Origin: a virus | DNA length: 64,000 nucleotides | Virus record (IMG/VR): IMGVR_UViG_3300028840_006907 | Span: 128,001 to 192,000 of that record | Reading direction: 5' to 3' (one strand) | Shown here: positions 16,764-23,454 of the stretch, piece after piece | Layout: every line of letters starts with the position of its first letter | Numbering within the stretch: the stretch's first letter is position 1 | Made by a program: the position numbers and the translations under genes | Notes under the pieces: generated by a model | The model's input: the letters and a program-made list of their open reading frames with translations, nothing else | Told to the model about the DNA's origin: nothing | Databases searched by the model: none

Positions 16764-17390
16764 ATGATTGAGACACTTTTTTATTTTTGCTATTATTCTT
16801 ATTTACTAGGTGACTTAAAAAGTACTGAGATGTACTATTCTCTATTGAGAAAAGAATTCAAAGAACATGGCCGAAAAGATTCATTAGAATCTCACCAATA
16901 CCGAGAATTGAAAAAAGTTAAAGATGCTCTTGATTCTGGAACCATATCCAAGAAGGAATGGGTAGCTGATAAAGTTATTGTACCCAAGATTAATTCAGAG
17001 ATAAAAATAAAACAAGATGAATTGGTCCGGAAGATCCATATGGAGGGGCTAGAACAGCTTAAAGTTATCTTGGATGATTGTGTGCAGATATATAATATTG
17101 AGCATCCTTGTGGCTCCTACGGGGCTGTAGATATGGTTTATAAAGGATTGAATACGATCTATCCGGTGGAAGTGAAACGAAGTCGGGGAGAACATGATTT
17201 AATTGGACAAATAGGAAAGTATGATTTATATCATCGTTTAAGGCTCCATTACAAACATTATAAACATGTTCAACCGGTAACGATATGTCATTCTTATCAG
17301 AAATTTGCTTTAAATGAGTTAAGACAAATGAGGGTTTTGACCTTAATTTATACCATAATTAATAAGAAAATTACTCTAAATGTAATATAA
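16764..17390 (+). CDS. hypothetical protein
   Basis: ORF track; first + strand gene after the divergent intergenic region 16600-16763. Confidence 0.4.
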   Translation: MIETLFYFCYYSYLLGDLKSTEMYYSLLRKEFKEHGRKDSLESHQYRELKKVKDALDSGTISKKEWVADKVIVPKINSEIKIKQDELVRKIHMEGLEQLKVILDDCVQIYNIEHPCGSYGAVDMVYKGLNTIYPVEVKRSRGEHDLIGQIGKYDLYHRLRLHYKHYKHVQPVTICHSYQKFALNELRQMRVLTLIYTIINKKITLNVI

Positions 17391-17487
17391 ATTACTTTTC
17401 TATTGACTTTAAGATCATTTAGGGGTATATTTAAATTAAATTACCTTTTGTTAGAAAACGATAATTTCTAAAGAGTGTGTCAAAGAA

Positions 17488-17565
17488 ATGCTGAGAATGA
17501 CTTTTAATAGTAACCCAAATCCACAACCAAAGAATTTGCTATTCGTTGGGGTTGTTATGATATAG
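17488..17565 (+). CDS. small peptide ORF (25 aa), copy A of a repeated peptide-plus-hairpin unit
   Basis: Translated by eye: MLRMTFNSNPNPQPKNLLFVGVVMI; similar to the peptide at 18036..18110. Confidence 0.25.
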   Translation: MLRMTFNSNPNPQPKNLLFVGVVMI

Positions 17566-17589
17566 TCATAATCTCTACCTTGGATCAGG

Positions 17590-17629
17590 AAAAGCCCCGG
17601 CAAATGAGAGTTCTCCGGGGCTTTTCTTA
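17590..17629 (+). terminator. terminator-like hairpin with conserved loop AATGAGAGTTC (copy A)
   Basis: Stem AAAAGCCCCGG / CCGGGGCTTTT, 14 nt loop CAAATGAGAGTTCT, then T-rich tail. Confidence 0.45.
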
Positions 17630-17646
17630 TTTAATAATGTACTAAT

Positions 17647-17979
17647 ATGAAATTCGGTTCTATCACAGGTTTTTATAAGGGAAGGATAGAACTTATGAAT
17701 AAAGTATCTTGGGATGAGTATAATAGTATGGTAAATTCAGCAATTGATAGTGGGTATCCTTATGCTAGTGGTATTTTAATAGCTGAATTAGAATCCATAG
17801 CTAAGAATCTAACTCATCAAAATAAAAAGATAGAGGAAACATTAGTAAAAGAAGATAAGGATAAATTGGAAATTAGATTGGAATCAGTAAAGTCATGGAA
17901 TAAAGATACTATTGAGGGTATCGAAAGAGCTATTAAAAAAGCTGATGAAGCAGTAAAAAAATTAAGTGTTGACATTTAA
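17647..17979 (+). CDS. hypothetical protein
   Basis: ORF track. Confidence 0.4.
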   Translation: MKFGSITGFYKGRIELMNKVSWDEYNSMVNSAIDSGYPYASGILIAELESIAKNLTHQNKKIEETLVKEDKDKLEIRLESVKSWNKDTIEGIERAIKKADEAVKKLSVDI

Positions 17980-18035
17980 TACAATTTGTGGTATCTTTAA
18001 ATTTACATAGTTTTTATTATAAGGAAAGTTTTAAA

Positions 18036-18110
18036 ATGTTGTTTACAAAAATACTCAATAATAACCCGCAACCTAATCAACCAACGAATATTTATTTGTC
18101 GGGGGCCTGA
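18036..18110 (+). CDS. small peptide ORF (24 aa), copy B of the repeated unit
   Basis: Translated by eye: MLFTKILNNNPQPNQPTNIYLSGA; AAGGAAAG upstream. Confidence 0.25.
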   Translation: MLFTKILNNNPQPNQPTNIYLSGA

Positions 18111-18140
18111 GTATTGTCCAAAAGTTAAACTGAAATCACA

Positions 18141-18175
18141 ACCCCCGGCGAATGAGAGTTCACCGGGGGTTTTTA
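18141..18175 (+). terminator. terminator-like hairpin with conserved loop AATGAGAGTTC (copy B)
   Basis: Stem ACCCCCGG / CCGGGGGT, loop CGAATGAGAGTTCA, then TTTTT. Confidence 0.45.
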
Positions 18176-18179
18176 TTTT

Positions 18180-18255
18180 TGGGATGTCGCCTAACGGTAT
18201 GGCACCTGACTCTGGCTCAGGAATAATCAGGGTTCAAGTCCTTGCATCCCAGCCA
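18180..18255 (+). tRNA. tRNA-Gln (anticodon CTG)
   Basis: Acceptor TGGGATG/CATCCCA with U1-A72 (typical of bacterial tRNA-Gln), anticodon stem CCTGA/TCAGG with loop CTCTGGC, T-loop TTCAAGT, encoded GCCA. Confidence 0.75.
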
Positions 18256-18279
18256 ATTAACTTTAGGAAACAACAATAA

Positions 18280-18353
18280 CGGGGTGTGGCCTAGTCTGGT
18301 AAGGCGTCTGCTTCGGGAGTAGAAAATCGGAGGTTCAAATCCTCTCATCCCGA
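18280..18353 (+). tRNA. tRNA-Pro (anticodon CGG)
   Basis: Acceptor CGGGGTG/CATCCCG with C1-G72, D-stem GCCT/AGGC, anticodon stem TCTGC/GTAGA with loop TTCGGGA, T-loop TTCAAAT. Confidence 0.75.
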
Positions 18354-18371
18354 TTAATAAAGGTAAAAATT

Positions 18372-18926
18372 ATGAGACCCATGATATATCCTAAAAAGAA
18401 TAGGAAAATAAAAAGACCACGAAGATCGAGACCATTAAAAAGATGTGTTCATATTGATGGAAAAGAATGGAGGTGGGAAACAACAGGTCACTGGGATAGT
18501 GATGCAGGTAGTTATGGTTGTTTAACTGATCAGAGCGTTAAAATACTTTCTCCTGATAATAAATTTTTTTCTATACGTGCTCATGAAGTAATGAAATGTG
18601 AACCGATAAGATGGGAATGTTGTGTTGGTGAAAAATTAATAACAGTTTTACCGGGGAAAGTAAAACAGTATATAATAGATAATTTAATTGATCATGATAT
18701 TTCAAGATCGTTAAGGAGACGCATTCATATAGATGGTAGAGAATGGGGTTGGCAGTTTAGTAAAGGAAATCCTGCATATCAGCTCTGTGGAGTATCTGTC
18801 CGTTCTCCTGATAATCGGTATTTATGGATTTATGCAAAAGAGTTAGGATACGAGATTAAACCATCAGTAATTAAAAAGTATATAATTGATAATTTATTAT
18901 ATCGGGGTATAGCGCAGCCTGGTTAG
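18372..18926 (+). CDS. hypothetical protein with internal tandem duplication
   Basis: Two repeated halves (HIDGKEWRWETTGHW...SPDNKFFSIRAHEV / HIDGREWGWQFSKGN...SPDNRYLWIYAKEL; KQYIIDNLIDH / KKYIIDNLLYR); 3' end overlaps tRNA-Pro(GGG). Confidence 0.4.
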   Translation: MRPMIYPKKNRKIKRPRRSRPLKRCVHIDGKEWRWETTGHWDSDAGSYGCLTDQSVKILSPDNKFFSIRAHEVMKCEPIRWECCVGEKLITVLPGKVKQYIIDNLIDHDISRSLRRRIHIDGREWGWQFSKGNPAYQLCGVSVRSPDNRYLWIYAKELGYEIKPSVIKKYIIDNLLYRGIAQPG

Positions 18927-18980
18927 CGCGTCTGAATGGGGTTCAGAAGGTCGCCAGTTCAACTCTGGCTACCCCGACCA
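18903..18980 (+). tRNA. tRNA-Pro (anticodon GGG)
   Basis: Acceptor CGGGGTA/TACCCCG, D-stem GCGC/GCGC, anticodon stem TCTGA/TCAGA with loop ATGGGGT, T-arm GCCAG-TTCAACT-CTGGC, encoded ACCA. Confidence 0.8.
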
Positions 18981-19008
18981 AAGTTCTTTGAAAATTATGG
19001 GGGTGTGG

Positions 19009-19274
19009 CAGAAGGGATATGCAGTCCTCAAAAAGTAGACAGGTCTGGGTAAAACCGGGTCATTACAGGAAGTTTGTATTCGCTACTGAAACGAAACAAA
19101 GGGAAGGTAGTGTAACGCTTACGGACTGGTGCTTGCAAGGGTTTACGGAAGACACTGACACGTTGCCTGGGATCTGGAGACAGCCCAGGAGGGTTTGTAA
19201 ATAACGGCAGGAAGTCCTTTTTCCCAATAGTGAGCTTTGGATGACTTATGCCGGTTCGAATCCGGTCACCTCCA
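19009..19274 (+). ncRNA. tRNA-Ala-like element with about 190 nt insertion (interrupted tRNA or other tRNA-like RNA; identity unresolved)
   Basis: 3' end is a canonical T-arm GCCGG-TTCGAAT-CCGGT followed by CACCTCC-A; the only complementary 5' strand is GGGGGTG at 19009, giving a 7 bp acceptor helix with a G3-U70 wobble (the tRNA-Ala/tmRNA identity pair); no group I motifs and no tag-like ORF inside. Confidence 0.3.
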
Positions 19275-19360
19275 TCAAAATAAATTAAATAGATAGATAG
19301 GCAAACTGGCAAGCCATTTGGTTGTAATAGAAAATGTGTAGCAAGATCATAAAGACATAC

Positions 19361-19632
19361 TGGAGTGTAGCTCAGTGGCAGAGCGGGTGGCTGTCTTGGT
19401 TGGCAGCTCTTATAGGAAACTGTAAGATGAAAACTCGGTGAATTCAGGGAAACCTAAGTCTTAAACAGATATGGCAATCCTGAGCGAAGCCTTGAGAAAG
19501 GAACGTGCAGAGACTTATAGCGCCGAGCACCTAAGGTGAAAACTATGGTGATGAGATAGTCCAGGCCCTTGGGAAATCAGGGGAATTACTGTAACCACTT
19601 GGTCGGGGGTTCAAATCCCTCCACTCCAGCCA
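19361..19632 (+). tRNA. tRNA-Asn (anticodon GTT), interrupted by a group I intron in the anticodon loop
   Basis: Exons join to TGGAGTG-TA-GCTC-AGTGGCA-GAGC-G-GGTGG-CTGTTAA-CCACT-TGGTC-GGGGG-TTCAAAT-CCCTC-CACTCCA-G-CCA; U1-A72 and loop CUGUUAA match E. coli tRNA-Asn. Confidence 0.7.
19395..19591 (+). ncRNA. group I self-splicing intron (in tRNA-Asn anticodon loop, between positions 35 and 36)
   Basis: Contains group I core motifs TCAGGGAAACC, GGCAATCCTGAGC, GTGCAGAGACT (R-like) and GAGATAGTCC (S-like); 5' exon ends in U paired to G in putative guide GCAGC (P1 GCTGT/GCAGC); intron ends in G. Confidence 0.65.
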
Positions 19633-19683
19633 ATTTTAAAGGGTCCTAGAGGAATTTACTTTAAAGAAAAGGAGAAAAATTAA

Positions 19684-19884
19684 ATGAGTAAAGATGAGAA
19701 ACCTGATTATTCGAAAGATTTCGATACATGTCCTTGGTGTAATAAAATACCAAAAGTATCGAAACATTTCAGATATGATGAATGGCAACTGATCCATCGT
19801 TGTGATAAATTACTTACTGTAATTAGTATGGATTGGACTGAATTAGATAGTCTTAAAAATCGATGGAATCGACCTAAGAAATGA
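19684..19884 (+). CDS. hypothetical small protein
   Basis: ORF track; AAGGAGAAAAA upstream; CPWCNK in translation. Confidence 0.4.
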   Translation: MSKDEKPDYSKDFDTCPWCNKIPKVSKHFRYDEWQLIHRCDKLLTVISMDWTELDSLKNRWNRPKK

Positions 19885-20156
19885 CAGAATGTACTATATG
19901 TGAAAGAGAAACTCCTGAGAAATATGTGGAGAAACATCACTTGACTCCTTGTAGCCGAGGAGGAAAGGATAAGGAGAAAACACTTACTTGTATTGATTGC
20001 GGAGATCAGGTACATCGATTATTTACGAATAAAGAATTGGAGAGAGACTATTATACACTCGAAAAATTATTAGCTCATCCTAAAATCCAGAAATGGAAGA
20101 AATGGGTTAAGAATAAGAGATTCGGGATATGTATGAAACGAAAAAAGAAGAGATAA
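19881..20156 (+). CDS. zinc-binding small protein
   Basis: ORF track; CTICERE...CIDCGDQVH; ATGA overlap with upstream gene. Confidence 0.4.
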   Translation: MTECTICERETPEKYVEKHHLTPCSRGGKDKEKTLTCIDCGDQVHRLFTNKELERDYYTLEKLLAHPKIQKWKKWVKNKRFGICMKRKKKR

Positions 20157-20163
20157 TATATAA

Positions 20164-20239
20164 CGGGCGGTCGCCTAATCTGGTATGGCACCACATTTGG
20201 GATGTGGAATAACTGGAAGTTCAAATCTTCTCCGCCCGA
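20164..20239 (+). tRNA. tRNA-Pro (anticodon TGG)
   Basis: Acceptor CGGGCGG/CCGCCCG with C1-G72, anticodon stem CCACA/TGTGG with loop TTTGGGA, T-arm GGAAG-TTCAAAT-CTTCT, A73; variable region slightly long. Confidence 0.65.
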
Positions 20240-20263
20240 TATATTTTTAAATCAATAAGTTAC

Positions 20264-20339
20264 TGGGATGTAGTTCAGTTGAAAGAACACCGGAATTTGG
20301 ATCCGGGGGTCGCAGGTTTGAGCCCTGCCATCCCAGCCA
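20264..20339 (+). tRNA. tRNA-Gln (anticodon TTG)
   Basis: Acceptor TGGGATG/CATCCCA with U1-A72, D-stem GTTC/GAAC, anticodon stem CCGGA/TCCGG with loop ATTTGGA, T-arm GCAGG-TTTGAGC-CCTGC, encoded GCCA. Confidence 0.8.
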
Positions 20340-20537
20340 TTTAATTTTTTTATCAATATATTTACCACAAAGACGTATATTATTTATACAACTTAAAAAT
20401 AGGAATAATATATGACATAGATAAAAATACCACCCTAGATCCTCAAAATATTCAAACCTCCTTAAAACACGGTTATTATACCAAATGGTGTTATACCAAA
20501 CAGTACAATATTCATTCATTTAAACAGGAGAATAACC

Positions 20538-20837
20538 GTGATCAAAAATAGAAAATTTTTAAAATTTGAATTAAAATTAGAAGCTCAAAAATTACGAAAA
20601 ATCAAGACTGATATTAAAACCAAGCAGAGAGCTGGCCAGTATGCCGGTCATGAACAGTCCGAATTATTGACTCTTAAATGGAATTACCGCCATCGATTTA
20701 TTGCTTATTGTATGATGCGGGGTAGAGAATATAAGCAAATCGAAAGAACATGTAGAGTTGAACCAAATCATGACTGGGTAAAGGAGATCATCAATGAATA
20801 CTCCCCGCAAAAAGAAACTATACGTGCTTCTGCGTAA
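20538..20837 (+). CDS. hypothetical protein
   Basis: ORF track; AGGAGAA upstream; GTG start. Confidence 0.35.
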   Translation: MIKNRKFLKFELKLEAQKLRKIKTDIKTKQRAGQYAGHEQSELLTLKWNYRHRFIAYCMMRGREYKQIERTCRVEPNHDWVKEIINEYSPQKETIRASA

Positions 20838-21108
20838 AGATTTGGATGAAACTTATCGATGTGTTCAAGGAGGCCATGCTATTGCTGAGTATTCTCTAAA
20901 GGATTACCAGTCATTTAAAGAATGGGCAAATGGAACTCTGATTTATCTTGGAGTACCTGATTTAAAAGCTTTGGAATTATGGTTGCTCAAATTGGAACGG
21001 AAAAATATTTTTCATATCAGGTTTCATGAACCCGATCTTGGGAATGAGTTAACATCGGTAGCTTGTATAAATACAGGGAAAATTTTTAAAAGTCTTCCTC
21101 TTGCTTAA
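20794..21108 (+). CDS. PTH2-family peptidyl-tRNA hydrolase-like protein
   Basis: LYVLLRKDL...QGGHAIAEY...IYLGVPDLKAL...TGKI lines up with the PTH2 pattern (VLVVRxDL...QxxHA...kvvlKv....L......G......DAG.T.i..G..T.lgiGP). Confidence 0.5.
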   Translation: MNTPRKKKLYVLLRKDLDETYRCVQGGHAIAEYSLKDYQSFKEWANGTLIYLGVPDLKALELWLLKLERKNIFHIRFHEPDLGNELTSVACINTGKIFKSLPLA

Positions 21109-21115
21109 AGTTACA

Positions 21116-21189
21116 GCGCCTGAGGCTCTGAGGTGAGCAACTTGGACTCTAAATCCAAGTTTTTCAGGGTTCGACTCCCTACAGGCGCA
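21116..21189 (+). tRNA. putative amber suppressor tRNA (anticodon CTA)
   Basis: Acceptor GCGCCTG/CAGGCGC, A73, D-stem GCTC/GAGC, anticodon arm ACTTGGA-CTCTAAA-TCCAAGT (loop has U33, CUA, A37), T-loop TTCGACT; non-canonical 7 bp anticodon stem or 3 nt D/anticodon linker and short D-loop. Confidence 0.5.
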
Positions 21190-21287
21190 TTATAACTATA
21201 ATCTTTCCAACATTTTAAATTTTTAGTTATCACAATCATCTCTCAATCTTGTATAATATATAAGGGAAAAATTTAAGGAGATATAAA

Positions 21288-22022
21288 GTGATAATAATTT
21301 CTAAATTCCATGATTATTACGATAGTGGAATGACATATGGTATTGATAAAGAATTGAGGTTTATAAGAAAAACTGAAAAAATAGATAAACAATTGGAGAT
21401 ACCTGAAAAGATTACTGAATTAATGAAAGATTTGCCTAAGGTTTATGATTATTATAGAAGTCAACAATTTACAGCTCAACCTTTTATAATAATTTTCTGT
21501 GGTCAGGTTCATCTGGGGTATCATTTTTTTAATTTGAAAGATCCTAAGGATAAGAACTATTATGTGCGTCATACAGATCCAGATATCTATACATATGATT
21601 TGCCTTCAGTAGAAAAAGTGATTCAGAAATACGAACCGGAGATGTTCAAAACGTTTCGTAATAAAGATACACTCTTTCACCGTATCCTACCTTCATTCAA
21701 ATATGACGTTCTGGAAAGAGCATTCAAAAAATTCGAAGACAAGAAAATGGATGTCGGGATTCATCTGGATGAAGAATCCCCGATCCTATATCTTGGATAT
21801 GATGACAGAGATTTTATTTACATAAAGAATCCTGTTCTTCGGAAACTTCAATTTTTTAAAAAGGTTAATTCATTTACAGCTTTCCAGAATATCTCAATGT
21901 TTATAGGAGGAATTTGTAGCAAGACTTTCCCTCCCACCGTGGAACTCAGTGAAAAAGACAGAATCGGAAAACAAGGATTTGACAAGTGGTCTTTCAGAAA
22001 GAAGGGGGAAAATTCAAAATGA
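21288..22022 (+). CDS. hypothetical protein (244 aa)
   Basis: ORF track; AAGGAGA upstream of GTG. Confidence 0.45.
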   Translation: MIIISKFHDYYDSGMTYGIDKELRFIRKTEKIDKQLEIPEKITELMKDLPKVYDYYRSQQFTAQPFIIIFCGQVHLGYHFFNLKDPKDKNYYVRHTDPDIYTYDLPSVEKVIQKYEPEMFKTFRNKDTLFHRILPSFKYDVLERAFKKFEDKKMDVGIHLDEESPILYLGYDDRDFIYIKNPVLRKLQFFKKVNSFTAFQNISMFIGGICSKTFPPTVELSEKDRIGKQGFDKWSFRKKGENSK

Positions 22023-22192
22023 ATTTATTAGTAGCAGTAACAGGAGGATTCAATTTGTTTCATTGAAAATGCTATGGAACATTGTAGTGTAGAAGATCGT
22101 AAGAATGTTTATTATAATAATGCAGATAAAATATTGGATGGGGTTTATTTAGATAGATAAAGAAGAGTTTTAAATACATATATTTGAAATTG

Positions 22193-22240
22193 AAATACCC
22201 ATATTCGAAATTCATGAATCTTGAATATGGGTATTTTAAT
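22193..22240 (+). terminator. terminator-like long hairpin
   Basis: AAATACCCATATTC ... GAATATGGGTATTT perfect 14 bp stem around a palindromic loop, followed by TTTAATTATTT. Confidence 0.45.
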
Positions 22241-22290
22241 TATTTATTGATATTTCCATTAATTATAAACCTTAACTAGGAAGATGTATT

Positions 22291-22563
22291 ATGGCCGATA
22301 AAAAAACCGAAAAGAAGAAGTTTAATTGTGAGGTATTATTAGCACTTGATGAGAAGATAGGCCGAGGCAATATAGTCAGGTTACAAGTAGTGCGTTGGAA
22401 TAATTATTCCCCGGTTCTGGAAAAACGGGAGTATTACCAGAAGGATGATGAAGAAAGAACTGGGAAAGCCAAAGGTTTTAATCATGAAGATTTTGAAATG
22501 ATCCTAGAAAATGCAGATAAAATTCAGAAACTCCTTGAAAAGGAGTTTAAAGATAAAAAATAA
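22291..22563 (+). CDS. hypothetical protein
   Basis: ORF track; AGGAAG upstream. Confidence 0.4.
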   Translation: MADKKTEKKKFNCEVLLALDEKIGRGNIVRLQVVRWNNYSPVLEKREYYQKDDEERTGKAKGFNHEDFEMILENADKIQKLLEKEFKDKK

Positions 22564-22580
22564 AATAAAGGTTAGTTTAT

Positions 22581-22763
22581 ATGAGTATCGAGATTGTCGT
22601 AGCTGAATTAACACAAGGACTCAAAACTTTTCAATCAATCCATGGAGTTGATGACGAAGCAATGGTTGATGTTCTTACAGAGTGTGCCGAAATGTATAAA
22701 CGTAAAAAATTAGCAAAGGAAATGATGAAAAATAAAGATATAGTGACTGAACCTATTACTTAG
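22581..22763 (+). CDS. hypothetical small protein
   Basis: ORF track; convergent with the following minus-strand block. Confidence 0.35.
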   Translation: MSIEIVVAELTQGLKTFQSIHGVDDEAMVDVLTECAEMYKRKKLAKEMMKNKDIVTEPIT

Positions 22764-23454
22764 ATTTCTTTTCTTTATATTTGCTAAAGAGACCCATAAA
22801 AAGCGTCCAGAGTAATTTCAAGGCGTTATTCCTGACGTATTTTATTATTAATTCAATACCTTTCTTTTCGATATATAATTCAAATTCCTTTTCAAAAGTT
22901 TCTGTTCTATCCTTTATTGATTTTTTCCATACTTCAACCATTTCATTCAGATTGGTTTTACGTTCTTCAATCTCTTCTCGAATAGAATCTATTACCTCTT
23001 CTTTTTTATTACCTATTTCACTCAACAGGTCACTTAAATTTTTATCAATATCATTTTTGACATTCTTTAAAGCATCCTCTAGGAAACCTTGACCTTCATC
23101 CAATATCTTTCTGAGATTGTTATAGACTTCTCCCAATTCCCCTGTCTTGGTATCAGTTTTTCCCAAGAATTCCTTAACATTCTGGAGCTTTTCATCCATA
23201 TTACCAAGGTTGAGCTTTTCCATTGATTTTCTAATTTTTTCTGCTTTATCTTCTTGAATAGCCATATATTCTGCTAAATAATCTACTATTTTGTTTATTT
23301 TAAGTTTTGATTCAGAAAAATCAGGTTTTAGTTTTTCAACTTCCTCTTGTAATTCTTCTAAAAACATTTCACGGATTTTCTGAAGGGCTCCTTCCATTGC
23401 CCCACCGTTTGATGAGACACTGTTAAGTAGGTTCTTAAATTTCTTTTTATTCAT
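22756..23454 (-). CDS. coiled-coil protein
   Basis: E/K-rich heptad-like sequence throughout (LEELQEEVEKLK..., EIEERKTNLNEMVE). Confidence 0.45.
   Translation of the reverse strand: MNKKKFKNLLNSVSSNGGAMEGALQKIREMFLEELQEEVEKLKPDFSESKLKINKIVDYLAEYMAIQEDKAEKIRKSMEKLNLGNMDEKLQNVKEFLGKTDTKTGELGEVYNNLRKILDEGQGFLEDALKNVKNDIDKNLSDLLSEIGNKKEEVIDSIREEIEERKTNLNEMVEVWKKSIKDRTETFEKEFELYIEKKGIELIIKYVRNNALKLLWTLFMGLFSKYKEKKSK

Follow-up and report, generated by a model that had tools for sequence, protein, structure and literature searches.

The intron-bearing tRNA types of bacteria were extended from the classical four to 21 by Williams (2020, bioRxiv 10.1101/2020.01.27.920355), and the type with an insertion at the 35/36 site is counted among these 21, being "Asn.4Ug" in the naming of Nakagawa et al. 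A survey of 4,934 complete genomes by the latter authors (mSystems 2026, PMC13011429) counted 28 such introns, of which 25 were typed as IA and four carry an HNH endonuclease gene, with an enrichment of 35/36 introns in Patescibacteria. Patescibacterial homologues located at 35/36 in tRNA-Asn self-splice in vitro in a GTP-dependent manner at exactly the same junction as described below, self-splicing being documented for tRNA-Asp introns as well, and an omega G-to-C mutant is blocked in exon ligation (Nakagawa et al. 2026, PMC13011429). In the case of phages, a 2014 review (PMC3984707) placed all the introns then known in protein-coding genes, despite the presence of many phage tRNA genes, and within the searchable limits of the literature no later report was found in which a phage tRNA gene is interrupted by a group I intron.

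The locus presented here is contained in a window of 64,000 nt from the IMG/VR record IMGVR_UViG_3300028840_006907, and all positions given are those of this window. With a probability of about 0.88, we consider the region 19361-19632 to be a tRNA-Asn(GUU) gene in the tRNA array of a probable large phage, with a compact group I ribozyme lacking any ORF inserted between U35 and U36. The observations bearing directly on this reading are the sequence itself, a covariance-model match, the helices, their covariation and the identity of the exons. All features discussed are on the + strand. The 5' exon (19361-19394, 34 nt) comprises the 5' strand of the acceptor stem, the D arm, the 5' strand of the anticodon stem and the loop residues C32, U33, G34 and U35, and the 3' exon (19592-19632, 41 nt) supplies U36, A37 and A38, the 3' strand of the anticodon stem, the variable loop, the T arm, the 3' strand of the acceptor stem, G73 and CCA. 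The two exons when joined are recognized by ARAGORN as a tRNA-Asn(gtt), which is 75 nt long and has a regular cloverleaf, an encoded CCA, U1-A72 and G73, and in a scan of the window the split gene was reported neither by ARAGORN in its default mode nor by the Rfam tRNA model. The group I intron occupies 19395-19591 (197 nt) and is matched by the Rfam model RF00028 Intron_gpI at 19385-19583 on the + strand with 92.8 bits (gathering score 50) and an E-value of 1.5e-22 for the 64-kb window. This match spans the full model (positions 1-253) and is the sole Intron_gpI match in the window, and an nhmmer profile built from related introns likewise detects a single copy, namely the tRNA-Asn intron. 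An ORF scan revealed no ORF of at least 30 aa within 19395-19591, hence no homing endonuclease gene is located inside, and the 197-nt intron lacks the intron-encoded endonuclease ORF by which a mobile group I intron is recognized. A 35-aa ORF at 19334-19441 merely overlaps the first 47 nt of the intron. An earlier note made from the sequence alone had read the 197-nt insert and both exons at these very coordinates, and its Asn(GUU) assignment, the canonical joined tRNA with U1-A72 and the loop CUGUUAA, the terminal G and the lack of an internal endonuclease ORF all agree with the present data, as do the four core motifs TCAGGGAAACC, GGCAATCCTGAGC, GTGCAGAGACT and GAGATAGTCC, all of which are present in the insert; the Intron_gpI search that it had proposed gave the match described above.

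Every canonical helix of a group I intron can be drawn, comprising P1, P2, P3, P4, P5, P6/P6a, P7, P8, P9 and P10. The P1 hairpin (19389-19408) pairs the exon sequence GGCUGU (19389-19394) with the intron sequence GCAGCU (19403-19408) over 6 bp, with the U35·G pair at the 5' splice site, and five of these six pairs, the inner ones, make up the GCUGU/GCAGC pairing with a U-G pair proposed earlier. The P1 loop is the P10 guide UGGUUG (19397-19402), located directly 5' of the P1 guide strand and complementary over 6 bp to UAACCA of the 3' exon; this P10 pairing is absent from the earlier note and was found in the follow-up. P2 (19409-19426) is the hairpin CUUAUAG-GAAA-CUGUAAG, whose GAAA tetraloop is shared with the P9 hairpin CCCUUGG-GAAA-UCAGGGG (19566-19583). 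The 5' strand of P3, CUCGGUG (19434-19440), has its partner CGCCGAG at 19521-19527, which is separated from P7 by the 5 nt UAUAG only, with no P7.1/P7.2 insert. The P4-P5-P6 domain (19444-19506) contains P4 (UCAGGG/UCCUGA), the P5 motif CCUAAG...UAUGG (19453-19458/19470-19474) and P6/P6a with a GAGA loop, and a second CCUAAG...UAUGG motif (19530-19535/19544-19548) is part of the P8 hairpin (19528-19550). Thus, the intron contains two GAAA tetraloops (L2 and L9) and two such motifs (P5 and P8). The guanosine-binding helix P7, which forms the pseudoknot, is composed of GAGACU (19510-19515) with a bulged A and AGUCC (19558-19562), and aligns to the Rfam consensus ..AGACUA / ..AUAGUCu. The terminal guanosine (omega G) at 19591 marks the 3' splice site. 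Minimum free energy (MFE) folding of 19389-19597 gave -63.1 kcal/mol with a z-score of -2.63, none of 200 shuffled sequences being as stable, and this fold independently recovers P1-P6, P8 and P9, the pseudoknotted P7 being absent from it.

Support for these helices comes from covariation in a MAFFT alignment of 17 short 35/36 introns taken from viral contigs and MAGs. In the structure as drawn, 75.8% of cells are paired as compared to 34-46% after a shift of the 3' partners by 1-3 columns, and the covariation score of 0.309 exceeds the shuffled mean of 0.131 and was reached by none of 500 shuffles. Compensatory changes are observed at all seven pairs of P2 (98% of cells paired), at 4/4 pairs of P6a and at five of the seven pairs of P9. 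P4, P5, P6 and P7, the latter with all five of its pairs, show no variation and are paired throughout, and the inner four pairs of P1 are also invariant. Since MAFFT mis-registers P3 and P8, with only 28.6% of P3 cells paired in the alignment, P3 was checked sequence by sequence, which revealed a helix of 5-8 bp with differing sequences in 17/17 introns; in the case of P8, the covariation is weak due to alignment shifts, and this hairpin is defined by its sequence and the MFE fold. The conserved P3-P9 core including the P3/P7 pseudoknot is hence present, with compensatory changes in P2, P3, P6a and P9.

As judged from homologues for which splicing was shown by experiment, self-splicing of the intron in the two steps usual for its class is most likely, and it is from these homologues that we infer splicing in vivo. 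The guide in the intron would pair with the last six exon bases (P1), presenting U35·G at the cleavage site, and a free guanosine held in P7 would attack after U35. Subsequently, the terminal G197 would take the same site, while the 3' exon would pair through its first six bases with the adjoining part of the guide (P10), and the freed 3'-OH of U35 would attack after G197, so that CUGU becomes joined to UAA in the anticodon loop CUGUUAA. Splicing is predicted to yield a normal tRNA-Asn whose CCA is encoded in the gene. The splicing mechanism itself holds nothing new. As an endonuclease gene is lacking, the intron by itself is not mobile at the DNA level, and its persistence is most likely due to the rarity of precise loss and to splicing, which would make the intron nearly neutral.

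The position of the insertion was addressed by a splice scan, in which all boundary pairs with U(-1) and omega G that give a tRNA were scored by P1+P10. The 35/36 boundary obtained the best score of 12 (6+6 bp) with the runner-up at 9, and is the sole boundary that unites U(-1)·G, omega G and P10, as judged from the DNA rather than from RNA. The claim of the earlier note that the insertion lies at 35/36 is thereby borne out, and the splitting of tRNA-Asn(GUU) between 35 and 36 is supported by the sequence comparisons. An intronless tRNA-Asn on another viral contig (L238) has a D arm and an anticodon arm identical to those of the split gene, and its sequence ...GTAGCTCAGTGGCAGAGCGGGTGGCTGT TAACCACT..., joined as GGGTGGCTGTTAACCACT, equals the predicted ligated junction.

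A competing reading of the same exons as tRNA-Thr(UGU), with an intron of the same length placed two bases upstream (33/34, printed as '32/33' by ARAGORN), appears highly improbable. It originates from the output of ARAGORN -i, which assigns 19361-19632 to tRNA-Thr(tgt) and places a 197-nt intron in it, and it is made feasible by the occurrence of TG at both junctions, giving a 7-nt loop under either reading; when the anticodon is masked, the tRNA body has 57 matches to Asn vs 54 to Thr by plain identity to a small reference set. However, with the Thr boundaries there would be no P10, the intron would end in C instead of G and U33 would pair with A without a U·G wobble, and the Thr(UGU) 33/34 boundaries were rejected for their failure to follow the group I splice-site rules. 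Furthermore, tRNA-Thr(UGU) genes in the fetched loci have G1 and U73, unlike the Asn-like U1-A72 and G73 of the split gene, a combination shared with every tRNA-Asn of Table S3 in PMC13011429. Relatives with ..AAAG instead of ..CTG at the end of the intron permit no second reading, and ARAGORN reports them as Asn(gtt). The same 2-nt mis-call by ARAGORN and tFind was recorded by Nakagawa et al. (PMC13011429), and sequencing of the spliced product of a homologue disproved the Thr assignment. The preferred tRNA-Asn reading could also be compromised if the intron were a decayed relic unable to splice, with the tRNA-Asn reduced to a pseudogene, and this we regard as improbable, if somewhat less so than the Thr reading. 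In its favour, the window lacks a second tRNA-Asn for comparison, and there are no close relatives from which conservation of this copy could be judged: the exact 34-nt 5' exon had 0 matches in a metagenome scan, and a second metagenome scan with the P10/P1 guide and core gave four, all by chance in unrelated sequence. Also, P1 and P10 would take up 2 + 3 nt of the anticodon stem, so that pairing of the exon stem and guide pairing compete. Against decay, all the core helices are intact, neither the U·G pair nor omega G nor P10 is missing, every position invariant among the 17 relatives (60 invariant columns) is retained, the Rfam score is far above the threshold and the exons form a perfect cloverleaf with CCA encoded. 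A functional tRNA-Asn would moreover be useful, since Asn accounts for 5.5% of the codons in the long ORFs of the window.

As regards the kind of genome that carries this intron-split tRNA-Asn, the window is very probably part of a large phage, an origin that we infer from its gene content. ARAGORN finds 13 tRNAs in the first 21 kb, which together with the split tRNA-Asn makes 14 tRNA genes among small ORFs, with redundant isoacceptors for Pro, Gln, Leu and Arg as well as a CUA (amber) suppressor. Several PHROG families are matched, including a UvsX/RecA-like recombinase (6e-61), for which an exact search of public assemblies gave no record and whose IMG/VR relatives have a best identity of 54%, and a DnaJ-like protein has its best matches in phages of 490-735 kb. 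Further ORFs encode SbcC-like and other nucleases, NAPRTase, proteins similar to a clamp and to flotillin, and many unknowns, and ribosomal and other housekeeping genes are absent among the ORFs tested. If the window came instead from a bacterium with a small genome, for instance a Patescibacterium, or from some other element, the intron would be one more example of the published bacterial class, a possibility to which we assign a small weight. It derives from the enrichment of 35/36 introns in Patescibacteria and their wide occurrence in MAGs, from the low GC content (~33%), many unannotated ORFs and the fact that neither structural phage genes, such as that of a capsid, nor a terminase gene were found in the window, and from the notion that 'viral' contigs of IMG/VR may include host tRNA genes at prophage ends; the tRNA array with its redundant isoacceptors and suppressor, the PHROG matches, the best matches of the DnaJ-like protein in huge phages and the lack of housekeeping genes among the ORFs tested argue against it. 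A megablast search with 17000-23000 against GenBank phages gave no match, and a promoter/terminator scan around the tRNA array yielded counts at chance level. Within the same array, a second candidate split tRNA at 18999-19277, called Gln(ttg) with a 207-nt intron by ARAGORN -i, gave no Intron_gpI signal up to E 10, has tmRNA-like ends with G3·U70 and A73, and was set aside as a split tRNA. A small free-standing HNH endonuclease gene is located at 19881-20156 (91 aa; Pfam HNH_5 PF14279, 31.1 bits with a cut-off of 27.5). It starts 249 nt downstream of the tRNA-Asn and overlaps the stop of a 66-aa Cys-rich ORF (19684-19884). The ORF-less intron and this gene might form a 'collaborative homing' pair, in which the nuclease would cut intronless tRNA-Asn alleles, at or close to the insertion site, in co-infecting phages, with the allele that contains the intron being protected by it, and intron and nuclease gene would be co-converted into the rival genome. 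Such a pairing, and with it any functional link between the HNH_5 gene and the intron, is unlikely in our judgement, although some features of related loci are in line with it. The HNH genes located within tRNA-Asn 35/36 introns of Patescibacteria belong to a second, different family, and members of this family are also found free-standing directly beside the intron-containing tRNA-Asn in two viral loci (L007 and L029) and beside the tRNA-Asn of the cultured Klebsiella phage Muenster (59% identity, E 2e-36), a suggestive pattern that is in accordance with collaborative homing. ORFs with a Zn-HNH motif occur within 1.5 kb in 3/10 viral Asn-intron loci vs 1/36 control windows, an enrichment resting on small counts. 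However, the HNH of the window has no detectable similarity to the Patescibacterial intron HNH or the Muenster HNH and no homologue beside any other intron locus, and free-standing HNH genes are common across phage genomes and tRNA arrays.

Intron-split tRNA genes are not restricted to this window among viral sequences. At least 22 further ones are present in IMG/VR contigs. Scans of the viral contigs of IMG/VR gave nine further tRNA-Asn and two tRNA-Asp introns at 35/36 and others in tRNA-Met(CAU) at 36/37, tRNA-Leu(UAA) at 34/35 and tRNA-Thr, and the cultured Klebsiella jumbo phage Muenster contains an unannotated intron-split tRNA(CAU). Concerning the search itself, the exact core pattern GGCAATCCTGAGC...GTGCAGAGACT was found at a minimum of 119 loci in IMG/VR, the majority of which have their intron in a protein gene. 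The intron mode of ARAGORN recovered a split tRNA in only 16/119 of these loci and also misplaces boundaries, and was replaced by the exhaustive U(-1)/G(omega) splice scan scored by P1+P10. A looser viral pattern, CTGT..GCAGC..TTCAGGGAA, gave mostly chance matches, with an intron in only 6 of ~118 new loci. When the tRNA together with its intron was compared by blastn with GenBank phages, only the P3-P7 core was matched, in introns of protein genes. The locus shows that tRNA introns occur in phage-like genomes, and taken together with the split tRNA genes of IMG/VR and Muenster it provides a plausible route for the horizontal spread of such introns. A broader proposal is that group I introns of phage tRNAs are a widespread undescribed class, spread between distant bacterial phyla by tRNA arrays and free-standing HNH genes of the Patescibacterial intron family, with the ORF-less intron of the window cooperating with its neighbouring HNH by collaborative homing; this is tentative and, as a whole, rather doubtful. 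The anticodon-loop introns that would fall into such a class are those of Asn/Asp/Tyr at 35/36, Met at 36/37 and Leu at 34/35. If true, a widespread phage-tRNA class would contradict the 2014 generalization that phage introns reside in protein genes only. Because tRNA finders miss the gene or label it as tRNA-Thr, phage tRNA repertoires and the codon-usage arguments derived from them are biased.

Compared with the described systems, the kind of intron found here is already published, and its phage setting and compact form are modestly new. The view expressed in the earlier note that a tRNA-Asn host and a 35/36 site would be unusual is outdated, this class having been published by Williams in 2020 and by Nakagawa et al. 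in 2026. A scan of GTDB species genomes adds at least 52 tRNA-Asn and at least ~23 tRNA-Tyr(GUA) 35/36 introns among the matches listed, in hosts including Omnitrophota, Nitrospirota, Binatia, Acidobacteriota, Planctomycetota, Patescibacteria, Clostridia and others. The window intron resembles the bacterial tRNA-Asn(GUU)/tRNA-Asp(GUC) 35/36 introns of Williams and Nakagawa et al. in its host tRNA, the insertion CUGU|UAA, the P1 guide GCAGC with U35·G and the terminal G, and it shares with the published class the core motifs, the usual absence of an endonuclease gene and the mis-call as Thr(UGU) by ARAGORN. However, the published examples reside in cellular genomes, measure 222-283 nt without an ORF and have an extra hairpin domain between P7 and P3', whereas the window intron has 197 nt, belongs to a probable phage tRNA array and contains only UAUAG at that place; most bacterial members are ~250 nt long with a P7-to-P7' gap of ~78 nt. 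With 6 bp, its P10 is also longer than those of 18 tabulated short relatives (0-4 bp). In core columns, the p-distance of the window intron is 0.32-0.47 from published 35/36 introns, 0.36-0.47 from Patescibacterial introns and 0.40 from two published IC3 introns, with the nearest relative at ~0.29 (182 core columns), and neither global pairwise identity nor p-distance cleanly separates Asn-type from Leu-type introns.

Concerning phage introns of protein genes, such as those of the T4 td type and those in DNA polymerase/primase genes of Vibrio, Salmonella and Pseudoalteromonas phages, the ribozyme class is the same and their P3-P7 core is 75-87% identical to that of the window intron over 60-90 nt. 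They are located in ORFs, usually contain P7.1/P7.2 and often carry or lie beside endonuclease genes, in contrast to the window intron with its position in a tRNA anticodon. A further comparison concerns the classical tRNA introns of subgroup IC3. The Azoarcus design is characterized by L2-P8 and L9-P5 contacts, and the GAAA loops of P2 and P9 together with the CCUAAG/UAUGG motifs of P5 and P8, which we take to be of the receptor type, resemble this design in the window intron. When crude nhmmer profiles made from published subgroup-labelled introns were applied, the answer for IA vs IC3 was split: at full length the IA/Asn profile scores 84.3 bits vs 69.7 for IC3, whereas the core only gives 62.6 bits for IC3 vs 50.3 for IA, and two compact viral Asn introns score clearly IC3-like with the same crude profiles (87 vs 40 bits in L007 and 77 vs 39 in L060). 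Thus, the closeness to the cyanobacterial tRNA-Leu(UAA) intron suggested in the earlier note is only partly borne out, with the core favouring IC3 and the full length IA, and the core motifs quoted as a sign of it, present as they are, are common to very many bacterial and phage introns, including those of protein genes. The Azoarcus tRNA-Ile(CAU) intron has a length of 205 nt (PMC13168695), and this intron and the cyanobacterial-plastid tRNA-Leu(UAA) IC3 introns share with the window intron a size of ~200 nt, a location in the anticodon loop and core motifs. They differ from it in residing in other tRNAs at other sites, with Leu at 34/35 according to Nakagawa et al. (PMC13011429) and Ile2 at 33/34 in the table of that paper, Williams' Ile2.5Ug corresponding to 36/37. 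In place of the 34/35 insertion by which IC3 introns of tRNA-Leu(UAA) are defined, the window intron interrupts tRNA-Asn at 35/36.

In group I intron-containing tRNAs, the insertion point between anticodon-loop positions 35 and 36 (35/36), used by the ORF-less intron in the tRNA-Asn(GUU) gene of the window, was found to host Tyr, Asn and Asp tRNAs, all with an anticodon starting with GU, and the P1 guide GCAG is common to the 35/36 introns of these three tRNAs. A tRNA-Tyr(GUA) with a group I intron at 35/36 is frequent in Omnitrophota and other MAGs, being represented among the matches listed by genome-contig loci L291, L295, L298, L303 and L350 and about 18 others. In IMG/VR viral contigs, tRNA-Asp(GUC) is interrupted at 35/36 at loci L215 and L241, and at locus L070, which contains a tRNA-Asn 35/36 intron, 15 tRNAs are present within 9.6 kb. 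Several further isoacceptors in such viral contigs also hold group I introns, several of them within dense tRNA arrays. These introns are located at 36/37 in tRNA-Met(CAU) (loci L031, L047, L114 and L115), at 34/35 in tRNA-Leu(UAA) (locus L079, with L022 and L109 likewise so read in the splice-site scan) and in tRNA-Thr(UGU) (loci L078 and L106).

Immediately 5' of the window's tRNA-Asn, on the plus strand, lies a tmRNA-like gene of 279 nt (18999-19277) with tRNA-like ends. GGGGGUG/CACCUCC forms the acceptor stem, which carries G3·U70 along with A73, and GCCGG-UUCGAAU-CCGGU forms the T arm. The Rfam tmRNA model gave only 11.7 bits, with the match confined to the tRNA-like ends, and ARAGORN made no tmRNA call at this position, its intron mode instead labelling the segment as tRNA-Gln(ttg) with a 207-nt intron. 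No group I signal was found in this segment, its RNA fold is without unusual stability (z -0.57) and no tag peptide was recognised. Further upstream, there is an ORF of 184 aa with an internal duplication (18372-18926, plus strand), whose duplicated units are HIDGKEW..SPDNKFF..KQYIIDNLI and HIDGREW..SPDNRYLW..KKYIIDNLL; it has no family match, and its 3' end overlaps tRNA-Pro(GGG) (18903-18980) by 24 nt.

On the 3' side of the intron-containing tRNA-Asn, at a distance of 52-249 nt and within the tRNA array, are located a Cys-rich ORF of 66 aa and an HNH_5 endonuclease gene of 91 aa (PF14279, 31.1 bits), which overlap by ATGA (19684-20156, plus strand). The array also contains a tRNA with the amber-suppressor anticodon CUA (21116-21189, plus strand; Rfam tRNA 38.1 bits), called by ARAGORN with the label 'Pyl'. 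Since TAG is still used as the stop codon of 9 of the 54 window ORFs of at least 150 aa, wholesale recoding of TAG is not evident, despite the presence of this tRNA. A near-perfect inverted repeat, AAATACCCATATTCGAA...TTGAATATGGGTATTT (22187-22244), looks like a bidirectional terminator-type hairpin and gave spurious microRNA-family matches on both strands.

In L372, the locus of Klebsiella phage Muenster (MT708547.1), a cultured 347-kb jumbo phage, the tRNA array holds a group I intron at 1426-1735 that scores 104.1 bits with Intron_gpI and lacks annotation. By eye, it interrupts a tRNA(CAU) at 36/37; ARAGORN made no call on the spliced form, in which the D loop measures 12 nt. The intron match recurs in Klebsiella phages KP13-7, RCIP0023 and phiKp_21 and in E. 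coli phages TH47 and Turkey5. Another group I intron (Intron_gpI, 96.1 bits) is present at 1476-1707 of L373, from the uncultured 735-kb phage LR756501.1, with flanks that do not resemble a tRNA. One HNH endonuclease family, whose genes reside inside Patescibacterial tRNA-Asn 35/36 introns, also occurs in several MAG loci (L305, L353, L309, L312 and L265) and adjoins intron-containing tRNA genes in viral contigs, with members at 5474-5707 of L007 (minus strand), 3340-3600 of L029 and 8581-8844 of L066 (both plus strand). In phage Muenster, a member of this family (L372, 1971-2516; 59% identity over 81 aa, E 2e-36) is free-standing and adjoins tRNA-Asn.
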